Source: a virus
Lineage: Duplodnaviria; Heunggongvirae; Uroviricota; Caudoviricetes
IMG/VR virus record: IMGVR_UViG_2574180275_000003
Reading direction: 5' to 3' (one strand)
DNA: 28,980 nt
Made by a program: the position numbers and the translations under genes. The notes under the pieces were generated by a model. The model saw nothing but the letters and a program-made list of their open reading frames with translations. It searched no databases and was not told where the DNA came from. The number at the start of each line of letters is the position of its first letter. Within the stretch, counting starts at the first letter, position 1. Shown here piece by piece: positions 517 to 15,037 of the stretch.

Positions 517-664
517 TAACAGTTCCCATCTGTAGGGGAGGGGCGGGTCAAATCTCTGCAACCCTGGCTGCTCAGTACCGCCGCCTGACCCTTCCTCACA
601 TCGCCGCAGGTTCGAAAACTTTTTTTTGGAAATGTGAACAAACGATTGATAGGTAAGACCGATT
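517..664. promoter_or_regulatory. candidate cos / terminase recognition region of the prophage (HNH-terS spacer)
   Basis: Non-coding 148 bp between HNH and terS with a G-rich block (ggggaggggcgggtca), accgccgcctgaccc and a T8 run; same architecture as the HNH-terS spacer of the inserted element (14750-15037). Assignment by position only. Confidence 0.3.
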
Positions 665-1147
665 ATGTCAGGACCTCCGAAAACCCCGCCACGCCTGCAT
701 TTGATTCGAGGCAACCCCTCAAAGCGCCCCGTTAAAGACCACAAAAAAACCGCTAAAAAGGATGAAAAAGGTCTTCCTAAAATTCCGCAGCATTTAGGGG
801 CTCAGGGGAAGTACTGGTTCAGGCGAATGGCGGAAGAGCTGAATGCGGAAGGGATCATTTCTCAGCTTGATGCGCGTGCGCTCGAGTTGCTGGTGGAAGC
901 CTACACCGAATATCGGCATCACTGCGAAACACTCGATGTTGAGGGGTATACCTACCGCACGGAAACGCAGAGCGGTGATGTACTGATTAAGGCGCACCCC
1001 GCGGCGGCAATGAAAGCGGATGCCTGGAAGCGGATCCGGGCAATGCTTGCAGAGTTTGGTATGTCACCGGCAAGCCGGGCTAAAGTAAATATCGCCGGAC
1101 CGGATGATGTTGATCCGCTGGCGGAGCTTTTAAAAGCGAGAGACTGA
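665..1147 (+). CDS. terminase small subunit (P27-like family)
   Basis: 160 aa starting MSGPPKTPPRLHLIRGNPSKRP; stop overlaps the terL start (TGATG); paralogous to the second terS at 15038-15394. Confidence 0.8.
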   Translation: MSGPPKTPPRLHLIRGNPSKRPVKDHKKTAKKDEKGLPKIPQHLGAQGKYWFRRMAEELNAEGIISQLDARALELLVEAYTEYRHHCETLDVEGYTYRTETQSGDVLIKAHPAAAMKADAWKRIRAMLAEFGMSPASRAKVNIAGPDDVDPLAELLKARD

Positions 1148-2340
1148 TGGCAAAAGTGGCTGACGGGATCCGCTACGCCGAACGTGTTGTTGCAGGAGAA
1201 ATTGTTGCTGGCGAATTTGTCCGCCTGGCCTGCCAGCGTTTTCTTGATGATCTGAAGTACGGCGAAGAGCGGGGGATTTATTTCAGTGAACCCCGTGCGC
1301 AGCACATCCTGAATTTCTACAAATTTGTGCCTCATGTAAAAGGGGCGCTGGCAGGCCAGCCCATTGAGTTGATGGACTGGCATGTATTTATCCTCATTAA
1401 TATTTTTGGTTTTGTCATTCCGCTGGTCAATGAAGAGACCGGGGAAGTTGTCATGCGCAGCGATGGCAGCGGACGTCCGGTGATGGTGCGCCGGTTCCGG
1501 ACGGCGTACAACGAAGTCGCCCGTAAAAACGCAAAATCAACTCTGTCATCGGGTATCGGCCTGTATATGACGGGGGCAGATGGTGAAGGCGGAGCTGAGG
1601 TGTATTCAGCCGCAACCACGCGTGACCAGGCCAGAATCGTGTTTGAAGACGCCAAAAATATGGTCAGAAAAGCCCGGTCGACACTCGGGCGGTTGTTTGA
1701 TTTCAACAAGCTGGCGATTTACCAGGAGCAGAGCGCATCAAAATTTGAACCGCTTTCTTCGGATGCAAACAACCTGGATGGTCTGAACATCCACTGCGCC
1801 ATTATTGATGAGCTGCATGCACATAAAACTCGTGACGTGTGGGACGTTCTGGAAACGGCAACCGGTGCCCGTCTGCAGTCCCTTTTATTTGGTATCACCA
1901 CGGCAGGGTTTAACAAGGAAGGGATTTGTTACGAGCAGCGTGATTACGCCATCAAGGTATTGCGTGGCTATAACAGCGACGTGGAGGGCGCGGTAAAAGA
2001 CGACTCCTACTTTGCGATTATTTACACCCTCGATGAGGGAGATGATCCGTTTGATGAAACGGTCTGGCAGAAAGCGAATCCCGGCCTGGGCATCTGTAAA
2101 CGCTGGGATGATCTGCGTCGCCTGGCGAAAAAAGCGAAAGAACAGGTCTCTGCGCGGGTGAATTTTTTTACCAAGAAAGTAACATCACGCCGTAACAACA
2201 GTGCGACCTGTCCTGATTTTTTTAGTAACCAAATGAAAGAAAAAGATTTTTTCTTGTTCGTCGTTTTTGTTTTTTCTGGATGGTTCTGGCTGTTTTCATC
2301 ATTTGTGTATTGCACTGTGTATTGCAAAAACGGGTTATAA
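1147..2340 (+). CDS. terminase large subunit, N-terminal portion; ORF interrupted near 2172-2175 by the integrated element, last ~55 codons are read-through into element DNA
   Basis: Residues 1-342 align with the N-terminal half of the intact TerL at 15378-17039 (PHVKGALAGQPIEL / PHVKGAMRGSPIEL, ARKNAKST / PRKNAKST, RDQARIVFEDAK / RDQARIVFDDAR). After ...ARVNFFTK the translation becomes low-complexity (FLFVVFVFSGWFWLF) and the matching C-terminal half is found at 17561-18292. Confidence 0.8.
   Translation: MAKVADGIRYAERVVAGEIVAGEFVRLACQRFLDDLKYGEERGIYFSEPRAQHILNFYKFVPHVKGALAGQPIELMDWHVFILINIFGFVIPLVNEETGEVVMRSDGSGRPVMVRRFRTAYNEVARKNAKSTLSSGIGLYMTGADGEGGAEVYSAATTRDQARIVFEDAKNMVRKARSTLGRLFDFNKLAIYQEQSASKFEPLSSDANNLDGLNIHCAIIDELHAHKTRDVWDVLETATGARLQSLLFGITTAGFNKEGICYEQRDYAIKVLRGYNSDVEGAVKDDSYFAIIYTLDEGDDPFDETVWQKANPGLGICKRWDDLRRLAKKAKEQVSARVNFFTKKVTSRRNNSATCPDFFSNQMKEKDFFLFVVFVFSGWFWLFSSFVYCTVYCKNGL
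2168..2174. repeat. attL core (TTACCAA), left junction of the element
   Basis: Same 7-mer recurs at 17556-17562; in both copies ACC falls in the same terL codon phase (2170-2172 and 17558-17560). Confidence 0.6.
2305..2325 (+). promoter_or_regulatory. integrase arm-type binding repeats (left end)
   Basis: Tandem GTGTATTGCACTGTGTATTGC about 130 bp inside the left core and 20 bp upstream of int; near-identical copy at 17460-17480. Confidence 0.5.
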
Positions 2341-2345
2341 ATCAC

Positions 2346-13681: not shown

Positions 13682-14016
13682 TAGCCGGAAATATGCGGGA
13701 CCGGGTGACGATTATGACATTTACCACACAGCGCCTGCCGTCAGGTGCGATCCAGCAGATATGGACGGAAGGGGAAACCATCTGGGCAGAGGTCAAGGGG
13801 ATCAGCGGACGGGAATTACTGACCGCAGGCGCAGAAACCGCACCTGCAACGATTCGGGTATGGGTTCGCTATCGTGGCGACATATCCGCCGCCAGTCGCC
13901 TGAAAGTGCTTACCGGCGCTTTTGCCGGGAGCACGCTTAATATCATCGGGATCCCCTTACCTGATGCGAAAAGAACCCGGCTGGAAATTCTGGCAAAGGT
14001 GGGTACAGAAAAATGA
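13678..14016 (+). CDS. head-tail adaptor / head closure protein
   Basis: 112 aa, ATGA overlap with the portal stop; roughly 60% identical by eye to the prophage protein at 22140-22478 (TIWAEVKGISGRE, KVLTGAF, TRLEIL conserved). Confidence 0.7.
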   Translation: MIAGNMRDRVTIMTFTTQRLPSGAIQQIWTEGETIWAEVKGISGRELLTAGAETAPATIRVWVRYRGDISAASRLKVLTGAFAGSTLNIIGIPLPDAKRTRLEILAKVGTEK

Positions 14017-14309
14017 CAGCAGAAAAAATAACCCTGGAAGAGGCCAAACTTCACTGCCGCATAGATGGTAACACAGAAGACACACTGATTCAGGCATACA
14101 TAAGCGCGGCGCTGGAGGTATGCCAGAAGCATATTGGCAGGCGTTTTGATGACGGCCTGGAATTTACCCCTGCAATAAAAATTGGTTGCCTGATGTACAT
14201 CTCGCAACTGTACGAGTACCGGACAACGCTTGGCGATACCGATACAAAAGAAATTCCCCTGACGATTTCCGCGCTCTGGTCGGTTTATCGTGATGTGGGG
14301 GTGTACTGA
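14013..14309 (+). CDS. head-tail connector protein (gp6-like)
   Basis: 98 aa; N-terminal ITLEEAKLHCRIDGNTEDTLI resembles the prophage connector ELRVQCRIDDDNEQENSLL; overlaps both neighbours. Confidence 0.6.
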   Translation: MTAEKITLEEAKLHCRIDGNTEDTLIQAYISAALEVCQKHIGRRFDDGLEFTPAIKIGCLMYISQLYEYRTTLGDTDTKEIPLTISALWSVYRDVGVY

Positions 14310-14749
14310 TGCCATGGCAACCATTAAGGCGATGCACTGAGCCGGGCTGTAATAAGCGCGTGAAGTCCGGCAAGTGTGAAGAGCACAGGCGGGCTGCATG
14401 GCGTGCAGAGGATGCCAGACGGGGACACCGCCGCGCACGTGGGTATTCCCGACTGTGGGACAAATACCGCGCCATGTACCTGAAAAAAAATCCGTTATGC
14501 GTGCGTTGTCTGGCTAAGGGTATTTATACGCCAGCTCTTGTGGTGGATCACATCATTCCCATCAATGGCGGCGGTGATGTTCTCTTCTGGCCTGAGTGGA
14601 ACCACCAGGCATTGTGCCAGACGTGCCACAACCGTAAGACGACACGGGAAGATCCAGCCACGAAAGCGAACCGTAAGGCGGGCATGTATCGCGAGCAGGA
14701 AGAACGGGCGGCACATCGTAACGACTGGATGTATGGCGATGATGACTGA
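14309..14749 (+). CDS. HNH endonuclease, packaging-associated
   Basis: 146 aa with CxxC...DHIIPINGGG...LCQTCH, homologous to the prophage HNH at 166-516; TGATG-coupled to the connector gene. Confidence 0.85.
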   Translation: MPWQPLRRCTEPGCNKRVKSGKCEEHRRAAWRAEDARRGHRRARGYSRLWDKYRAMYLKKNPLCVRCLAKGIYTPALVVDHIIPINGGGDVLFWPEWNHQALCQTCHNRKTTREDPATKANRKAGMYREQEERAAHRNDWMYGDDD

Positions 14750-15037
14750 ACAGGAGCAAAACAGGCTGATACGTGGACTGATAAGGCAGCGTGACTTATG
14801 GAAGACACAGGAGACAGGGCACAAAGCCAACAGGACAGAGCGCACAGAACGCACCACAGCGAAGCGATTAACCGACCGTGACCGCGAGGTCATGGAATGT
14901 TTTCGCAATCGCTGGTGAGGCCGTCAGAGGGGGTGGGGGAGGTTTTCAGGACGAAACCGCCCCTGCCGGACACCGACCGCCTCCTCAAATTTTTGTGCAC
15001 GGGAATTTTTTTGAAAATAATTGGGCGAAAAAAGAAC
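14750..15037. promoter_or_regulatory. candidate cos / terminase recognition region of the satellite (HNH-terS spacer)
   Basis: Non-coding spacer with a G-rich block (gagggggtgggggagg), accgcccc / ccgcctcc and T7 runs, similar in layout to but distinct in sequence from the prophage spacer 517-664. Confidence 0.3.

Follow-up and report, generated by a model that had tools for sequence, protein, structure and literature searches.

The window analysed here, the 28,980-nucleotide stretch of IMG/VR virus record IMGVR_UViG_2574180275_000003, contains two HNH endonuclease genes, each followed by a spacer and a P27-family small terminase gene (terS). Both spacers are very probably HK97-type cohesive-end packaging sites (cos), each belonging to a different one of two nested elements: an E. 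coli prophage and, lodged in its large terminase gene (terL), a satellite of the capsid-forming phage-inducible chromosomal island (cf-PICI) type. What is observed is where the motifs lie, how they relate by homology to cos sites with mapped ends, how conserved they are, and which families the proteins belong to. The genes and spacers concerned are as follows (aa, amino acids).

166–516, + strand: prophage HNH endonuclease gene, 116 aa (Pfam PF01844, E 1.9e-16; 91% aa identity to the phiP27 HNH)
517–664, + strand: probable prophage cos region, the 148-bp HNH-terS spacer (phage-family profile matches 520–667, E 1.9e-26)
665–1147, + strand: prophage terS, 160 aa, P27 family (PF05119, E 2.3e-25; 74% identity to mEp235 TerS)
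1147–2174, + strand: N-terminal part of prophage terL, interrupted by the satellite (homology to the intact vB_EcoM-606R7 terL ends at 2174)
2175–17555, + strand: helper-embedded cf-PICI, ~15.4 kb (from the RefSeq annotation of the APEC17 locus, the att cores and the doubled motif described below)
14309–14749, + strand: satellite HNH endonuclease gene, 146 aa (PF01844, E 8.8e-10; 41.5% aa identity to the prophage HNH)
14733–14918, + strand: conserved small open reading frame (ORF), 61 aa, annotated by RefSeq in APEC17 (C-terminus ..RDRE[LV]MECFRNR*)
14919–15037, + strand: probable satellite cos region, the 119-bp non-coding spacer (satellite-family profile matches 14898–15036, E 1.2e-28)
15038–15394, + strand: satellite terS, 118 aa, P27 family
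15378–17039, + strand: satellite terL, 553 aa (PF03354 and PF20441)
17549–18292, + strand: C-terminal part of prophage terL (homology to the intact phage terL picks up again at 17549)

Judged from its sequence, the outer element is a P27/HK97-type lambdoid prophage and the inner one is a helper-embedded cf-PICI of ~15.4 kb that splits the prophage terL. The first 3.6 kb of the window were matched end to end in 36 complete E. coli genomes, and the junction of the truncated terL with the integrase gene (terL'-int) was found in 36 of 5426 such genomes. The locus of strain APEC17 is 99.2% identical to the window, and its RefSeq annotation was used for gene content. There, the left part of the prophage lies beside potB and contains lysis genes, the HNH endonuclease and the P27-family small terminase, followed by a large terminase subunit annotated as incomplete and 'missing C-terminus'. 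The insert starts with a tyrosine integrase, regulators, Bro-N, a DUF927 primase and SSB, continues with the major capsid protein, prohead protease, portal, and head closure and connector proteins, and ends with the second HNH, a small hypothetical protein, the second P27-family terS and an intact terL. A 'TerL endonuclease subunit missing N-terminus' comes next, and then the prophage portal, protease, capsid and tail genes.

The insertion was mapped against the intact terL of phage vB_EcoM-606R7 to between 2174 and 17549, with junctions that overlap by 14 bp around TTACCAA; this att core is found at 2168–2174 and 17556–17562. A doubled TGTATTGC motif defines helper-embedded PICIs (HE-PICIs) (PMC10111431). 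This motif, also written tgTGTATTGCantgTGTATTGCa or GTGTATTGCnnnGTGTATTGC, is present on both arms in two co-oriented copies that flank the attP centre, GTGTATTGCACTGTGTATTGC at 2305–2325 and GTGTATTGCGCTGTGTATTGC at 17460–17480, with 0.00 expected by chance and at distances from the att cores that roughly match published ones (PMC10111431). The inner element has the integrase-regulator-primase and capsid-to-terL gene sets of a cf-PICI, within 15.4 kb and without tail or lysis genes, in the order int, regulators, primase, capsid, protease, portal, connectors, HNH, small ORF, terS, terL. Like an HE-PICI, it is integrated within, and disrupts, a prophage late gene, terL, for which a target site has already been described (A:Terminase_1:245/246; Mageeney et al. 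2023, PMC10111431). Because of the insertion mapping, the gene order and the doubled motif, the 'two elements' mentioned in the preliminary description are identified as the prophage and a satellite nested in its terL.

Of the two spacers bounded in that description, the one at 517–664 (148 bp) stands as given. The other, 14750–15037 (288 bp), was too wide: two thirds of it (14750–14918) is part of the conserved small gene at 14733–14918, and the non-coding satellite spacer is confined to 14919–15037, its 119 bp being akin in size to the prophage's 148 bp. The small ORF has no Pfam match, and its C-terminus, RDRE[LV]MECFRNR*, is kept at the protein level while the DNA diverges in Klebsiella, Pluralibacter, Rosenbergiella, Proteus, Xenorhabdus and others; the conserved protein has 50–61 aa. 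Its counterpart in EcCIEDL933 may be 'gene 1792', and transfer drops severely when that gene is lost. Many database gene calls over-extend the satellite TerS to 165 aa (14897–15394). This call, with a start at 14897 and reading across the cos spacer, was rejected on the basis of the 117–118 aa length of the relatives and of indels in the spacer alignment that are not multiples of three (1 nt).

The G-block, accgcc/cctc and T7–T8 motifs quoted in the preliminary description are located where it placed them in both spacers. In the prophage spacer, the core ACCGCCGCC (577–585) is followed by CCTC (594–597), a T8 run (620–627) and the terS ATG at 665; in the satellite spacer, ACCGACCGCC (14972–14981) and CCTCCTC (14980–14986) are followed by a T7 run (15006–15012) and the terS ATG at 15038. 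The component features, including the predicted nicking sites (cosN), are listed below.

535–554, + strand: prophage G-block GGGGAGGGGCGGG (535–547) with TCAAATC (548–554), candidate upstream cos subsite
579–588, + strand: predicted prophage cosN with a 10-nt 3' overhang, CGCCGCCTGA (placed by gapless alignment to the HK97, phiP27 and SfI ends)
601–627, + strand: candidate prophage TerS-binding block, TCGCCGCAGGTTCGAAAAC followed by T8 (+13 to +39 from the predicted cut)
14927–14952, + strand: satellite G-block GAGGGGGTGGGGGAGG (14927–14942) with TTTTCAGGAC, 33 nt before ACCGAC
14974–14983, + strand: predicted satellite cosN with a 10-nt 3' overhang, CGACCGCCTC (placed by gapless alignment)
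14985–15012, + strand: satellite right-hand cos block, TCAAATTTTT and then CACGGGAATTTTTTT (14998–15012), candidate TerS site

In both spacers GGGGNGGGG is followed 33 nt on by ACCG(C/A)C. The motif GGGGNGGGG has just two occurrences on both strands of the 29-kb window, one per spacer, and the pattern GGGGNGGGG-N(28–38)-ACCGMC, which was picked post hoc, matched twice in the window compared to 0.00 expected from 100 shuffles. The similar but non-identical layout described earlier holds for this motif arrangement; it does not extend to the pairwise alignments, which were no better than shuffles. Local alignment of the two spacers scored 21, where shuffles averaged 17.1 (sd 2.8) and 110 of 1000 reached that score; semi-global alignment gave z = 0.56. 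Since neither was significant, pairwise similarity was dropped as homology evidence, and the evidence comes from family profiles instead of from the spacer pair itself.

The satellite-family profile was built from 41 related spacers, the window being excluded. Its second-best match in the window is the prophage spacer (510–585, colinear, E = 0.059). The profile also matched phiP27 (E 6.4e-9, spanning the G-block, the annotated cos-site and TCAAATTTTTAC), mEp235 (E 6.5e-4), HK97 (E 0.01) and the prophage type (E ~0.05), with all matches colinear. The HK97 match ends at ACCGCCGCC, 3 nt short of the physical right end of the record. That right end reads ...GGGCAGGGGGGGGGATCAAATC-N22-ACCGCCGCCAAA and the record starts with GTTTGAATTTAACGCTAACCCGATTTTTTT, so that ...gaC[CGCCGCCAAA] joins the left end gtttgaattt. 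The minimal HK97 TerS site has been placed at +15 to +29 with an A-tract at +24 to +29 (PMC11331095), and the record numbering reproduces that site (T16, the C:G pair at 21 and the A-tract at 24–29; PMC11331095). The phiP27 record annotates a 10-bp misc_feature 'cos-site', CGCCCGCCCC, between HNH and terS, and for SfI, sequencing of virion DNA ends gave a 10-nt gap, TGCCCGCCCC (PMC3636060). The last base of the P27 cos column is exactly where the SfI record stops, and the Burkholderia phage vB_SR1 record is broken 2 nt ahead of the column. The physical or annotated ends of HK97, phiP27 and SfI thus share one alignment column. Candidate cos sites of HK97-like type between HNH and terS, as proposed at the outset, are borne out by this homology through family profiles to the mapped HK97, phiP27 and SfI sites.

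The predicted overhangs, CGCCGCCTGA (579–588) and CGACCGCCTC (14974–14983), are placed by gapless alignment to the HK97, phiP27 and SfI ends. In the satellite, caC[CGACCGCCTC]cTCAAATTTTT aligns without gaps to phiP27 gaC[CGCCCGCCCC]gTCAAATTTTT. A first estimate of the satellite cut, 14978–14987, was dropped in favor of 14974–14983 after this alignment and comparison with the family consensus. Relative to the predicted cut, satellite CACGGGAATTTTTTT lies at +15 to +29, which is the offset of the minimal HK97 TerS site. The prophage, phiP27, SfI and the satellite all have 33 nt between G-block and ACCG, and the layout of G-block, 33 bp, ACCG(C/A)C and then a specific motif with a T-run is common to both elements and their relatives. 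A further sequence resembling the HK97 G-block plus ATCAAATC occurs at 17308–17323 (GGGGGGGGATCGAAAT) without an ACCGCC core after it (nhmmer E 0.56); this resemblance could be due to chance or to a remnant half-site.

By Pfam, both spacers lie between an HNH gene and P27-family terS-terL genes, and the cognate TerL is of the HK97 lineage: the sole PDB sequence match of the satellite TerL is HK97 TerL (6Z6D, E 2.3e-43). The spacers show sequence homology to cos sites with mapped ends, the direct link from the satellite profile to the prophage being only E ~0.05. A lambda-type cos is not indicated at either spacer, as the terminase proteins are of the PF05119 and HK97 TerL types with an HNH partner. 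Profile-profile comparison of P27-family TerS with HK97 gp1 detected no sequence homology (probability 0.06%); HK97 TerS was a top-ranked fold match for TerS, and this structure match was relied on instead.

Two records assembled from particle DNA bear on fixed ends. The record of the induced satellite vB_KppS-Ant (LR881103) has unit length, the sole missing part being 69 nt centred on the predicted cut, and that of Providencia phage PSTRCR_117lys (MW358929) lacks 39 nt centred on the predicted cut; as a hint, these gaps fit under-covered physical ends. An IMG/VR scan for CTCAAATTTTTACGCACGG returned 109 exact-match stretches, mostly prophage-derived, and none of the 80 listed loci visibly ends at the site. 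Headful (pac) packaging of the satellite, with the spacer as an initiation region lacking fixed ends, is hardly credible considering the unit-length vB_KppS-Ant record, the HK97-type TerL with its HNH partner, and the report that packaged cf-PICI DNA re-anneals via cohesive ends and forms concatemers (10.1101/2025.02.11.637232).

Related cos sequences were also observed outside these families. Burkholderia phages (vB_SR1 and others) carry a core and right arm 87–88% identical to the phiP27 type (ACCGCCCGC..GTCGAATTTTCACGCCCGCGAAATTAAAAATT), with Pseudomonas phage matches as well; the cos type therefore spans beta- and gamma-proteobacterial phages. In the HNH-terS spacer of phage CharmingMan (PP925830), the cosN core is the exact reverse complement, AGGCGGCGGTCCT instead of AGGACCGCCGCCT, between colinear flanks.

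Conservation of the satellite spacer was assessed among 80 recovered loci with a satellite-type TerS, which come from many genera, including Klebsiella, Citrobacter, Aeromonas, Serratia, Erwinia, Proteus, Photorhabdus, Xenorhabdus, Gilliamella and Pasteurellaceae. Nearly all loci with enough upstream sequence share one architecture: GGGTGGGGG; (T)TCARRRATGACAAA or TTTTCAGGACAAA; ~14 variable bases; GGAACCGCCCSCCYCCTCAAATTTTTACGCACGGYRATTTTTTTGAAAATAA; and ~25 nt to the ATG. In the G-block region, GGGTGGGGG is nearly invariant among 27 aligned relatives. When 34 loci were aligned over 750 nt, the 15-nt blocks with the highest conservation proved to be non-coding ones, 14983–14997 (0.93) and 14998–15012 (0.87). 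Conservation across 14983–15012 exceeds that of most terS coding blocks, and the upstream small-ORF DNA reaches only 0.05–0.48 in these 34 loci. At one Xenorhabdus hominickii locus the G-block has grown to five tandem GGGGTA units. Xenorhabdus genomes carry many copies of the TerS-cos module, e.g. seven loci in X. kozodoii and six in X. innexi.

The conserved spacer motifs could alternatively serve gene expression, as a late-operon terminator or antiterminator, a promoter, an RNA element or the terS ribosome-binding region. The T-runs do lie 25–37 nt before terS, and, folded as a single strand, the G-block and the C-rich core can form base pairs. Neither spacer yielded a terminator-like site or a promoter-like site on the forward strand, however, and fold energies for the G-block/core pairing were no better than shuffles (z 0.07 and -0.62). 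No covariation was detected in 27 sequences (covariation term -0.05), and the mapped phage ends lie inside homologous sequence. A role as RNA or single-stranded DNA structure was rejected on the fold z-scores and absent covariation, and a gene-expression role overall is considered very improbable.

For the prophage spacer, the left half up to 582 is 83% identical to phiP27 as far as the annotated phiP27 cos-site. Over positions 100–1200 of the window (HNH gene, spacer and terS), identity is 99.1% to vB_EcoM-606R7, a phage whose terL is intact, and 96% to phi467. IMG/VR relatives of the prophage TerS are all 98–100% identical, giving little depth, and served for invariance and chimeras only; among 29 gaplessly comparable E. 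coli prophage loci from this set, positions 602–629 are invariant. A second family with prophage-like TerS comprises mEp235, Klebsiella phage 1 LV-2017, Morganella IME1369_02, Vibrio Pm34 and E. coli 733R5, and its layout is GGGG.GGGCGGGTCAAATC, a variable stretch, GGACCGCCGCC and then TnACCTCTTTTCACATCGCCGCAGGTTAGAAAACTTTTTT. The TerS-side block is kept as CGCCGCAGGTTAGAAAACTTTTTT in Klebsiella, Morganella, Vibrio and Providencia phages of the same TerS type.

These data also bear on whether the prophage spacer is a relic of a defective prophage, with only the satellite site functional. The prophage terL is interrupted, and several early-region genes are pseudogenes in the RefSeq copy. Even so, a relic is distinctly unlikely because of the 99.1% match to a phage record with intact terL (and 96% to phi467), the TerS-side block that is invariant in 29 loci, and the precise excision at TTACCAA that would restore terL, which is described HE-PICI behaviour (PMC10111431).

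To the right of the predicted cut the two elements cannot be aligned, and the sequence follows the TerS type. The prophage and phiP27 have HNH proteins that are 91% identical and the same left half; their nucleotide similarity ends at 582, inside cosN, beyond which the right halves are unrelated and the TerS proteins are 19% identical. The phiP27 TerS is nearer to the satellite TerS (32%, E 7e-18), and both of these loci carry TCAAATTTTTAC. Natural chimeras were found among IMG/VR E. coli prophages, in which a phiP27-type left half (…GGCTGTCCGGGACCGCCCGCC) is joined inside cosN to a prophage-type right half (AACCCTTCCTCGCATCGCCGCAGG…); these carry the same TerS as the window prophage. The segment beside the G-block also differs consistently, being TCAAATC in the phage type and TTTTCAGGAC or ATCAAAAATGAC in the satellite type. 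It is plausible that the spacer differences would give each terminase its own target, and a right-hand 'address' read by TerS would fit this pattern.

In the proposed model, each cos site would consist of three parts: a G-rich block that precedes the cut region by 33 bp; a cosN core rich in C, ACCG(C/A)CGCC, at which TerL and the HNH protein would introduce staggered nicks to leave a 10-nt 3' overhang, by analogy with HK97; and, towards terS, a specific short motif with a T-run after it as the likely seat of the TerS ring. The direction of packaging would be to the right, into terS and terL. Both elements have the G-block and core in common, the right part being wholly different and specific to the TerS type; each TerS is therefore predicted to recognise no concatemer but its own. 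The exact nick positions, the binding of TerS and the discrimination between the elements are all predictions of this model.

It is also conceivable that both spacers are cos sites with no discrimination at cutting, the shared left half (G-block, 33 bp, ACCGCC) being cut by either HNH-TerL pair. Cross-cleavage between satellite and helper would follow, and specificity would come in only at a later stage, e.g. by TerS-TerL-portal matching or capsid size. The identical spacing and near-identical core motifs in the two spacers are consistent with this, as are the retention of the left half from Burkholderia phages to satellites and the identities of 41.5% between the HNH proteins and 31% between the satellite TerL and that of an intact prophage relative (the latter being 38% identical to phiP27 TerL). 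Published genetics of the prototype EcCIEDL933 and phage HK106 argue otherwise, in that neither machinery packages the other's DNA; cf-PICIs require their own HNH, TerS and TerL, the phage likewise requires its own, and mutants in either set are not rescued by the other (10.1101/2022.09.08.507074). The satellite also leaves phage yield unreduced (10.1101/2022.09.08.507074), and the segments beside the G-block consistently differ (TCAAATC vs TTTTCAGGAC or ATCAAAAATGAC). This alternative is regarded as unlikely.

The preferred reading, two HK97-type cos sites each addressed by its own TerS, can be carried one step further. HK97-type cos sites may be tripartite and modular, with the G-block 33 bp upstream and the core forming a generic HNH-TerL docking and cutting substrate, and the terS-proximal third alone acting as the TerS 'address'. 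This extension is put forward tentatively. The G-block subsite is kept from Burkholderia phages via P27/SfI/HK97-like coliphages to capsid-forming satellites. If modularity holds, recombination inside cosN would swap packaging identity, and a satellite nested in the terL of its helper would have the nuclease substrate in common with it but an address of its own.

Several observations weigh against the preferred reading. Nick positions in both elements rest on alignment and not on physical termini, and the phiP27 'cos-site' was taken as annotated in its record. The two spacers are not significantly similar in pairwise comparison, and the satellite-profile link to the prophage type is marginal (E ~0.05). 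The T-run of the prophage is at +32 to +39 and not at +24 to +29; the prophage TerS site may be placed differently from that of HK97. Lastly, the covariation of right half and TerS is confounded by physical linkage, which could yield the same pattern.

An HK97-type cos is an ordinary, known kind of site, and the satellite family and the terL insertion are likewise known, so that the general understanding of these packaging systems is unchanged. The new elements are the base-level predicted cut and TerS sites, the small-gene correction and the G-block at a fixed 33-bp offset. The cos sequence is not spelled out in the cited cf-PICI papers, and the predictions can be tested base by base, both for the cuts in the cf-PICI and the surrounding prophage and for the binding position of each TerS. 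One cos architecture (G-block, C-rich core, TerS-specific right arm) is common to helper-type phages and satellites, which lends itself to straightforward swap experiments that probe packaging specificity. Past the end of the satellite terL, the repeat GCGGGTTAT occurs three times at a spacing of 21 nt, followed by inverted ATAACCCGC copies that flank an AT-rich stretch (17121–17171 and 17247–17272), an arrangement resembling an iteron-type replication origin.

Among known systems, HK97 (gp74 HNH, gp1 TerS, gp2 TerL) resembles the window sites in several respects: a cos that lies between the HNH gene and terS, a G-run with ATCAAATC after it, ACCGCCGCC as the core where the cut falls, the column of the 10-nt 3' overhang, the A/T tract at about +24 to +29 (satellite T7 at +23 to +29), the homologous TerL (E 2e-43) and a top-ranked TerS fold match. 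It differs in a TerS without detectable sequence relation (HK97 gp1 fails PF05119), in its right-hand sequence, CTAACCCGATTTTTT, and in a 320-bp gap from HNH to cos, and the T-run of the window prophage is 8 nt further from the cut. The phiP27/SfV/SfI/ST64B cos (CGCCCGCCCC-type, with P27-family TerS) has a left half almost identical in phiP27 to that of the prophage, with a 91% identical HNH; the satellite family has the same core and TCAAATTTTTAC block, and the G-block spacing is 33 nt. Departures from this type are, in the window prophage, the right half and the TerS, which is of the mEp235-like clade, and, in the window satellite, the core, CGACCGCCTC instead of CGCCCGCCCC, and a TerS without the ~40-aa N-terminal extension.

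The lambda cos (cosQ-cosN-cosB) is alike in outline, with a nicking site, small-subunit binding on the terminase-gene side and an upstream element at a fixed distance. It has a 12-nt 5' overhang, no HNH partner, unrelated Nu1/gpA, R-sites and IHF, and shares no sequence similarity, making the likeness an analogy only.

EcCIEDL933 was sought around potC in EDL933 and was not located there, the region being a different prophage with an intact terL; OR845787, a record from a phage preparation on EDL933, was rejected as EcCIEDL933 since its best E. coli matches were 97.5% and in other strains. The described cf-PICIs EcCIEDL933 and KpCIDSM30104 share with the window element the order int ... pri, capsid-protease-portal-connectors, hnh-(small ORF)-terS-terL, the size of ~15.4 kb, the lack of tail and lysis genes and cos-type packaging with their own machinery, the last being predicted for the window element; the window copy sits in a prophage terL and not in a chromosomal attB. 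With HE-PICIs (PMC10111431) it shares insertion in the prophage late gene terL, co-orientation, a short att identity block and doubled TGTATTGC on both arms. The HE-PICI model 11capE lacks terS and is presumed to use the helper cos, whereas the window element has capsid genes, a packaging module and, very probably, its own cos.

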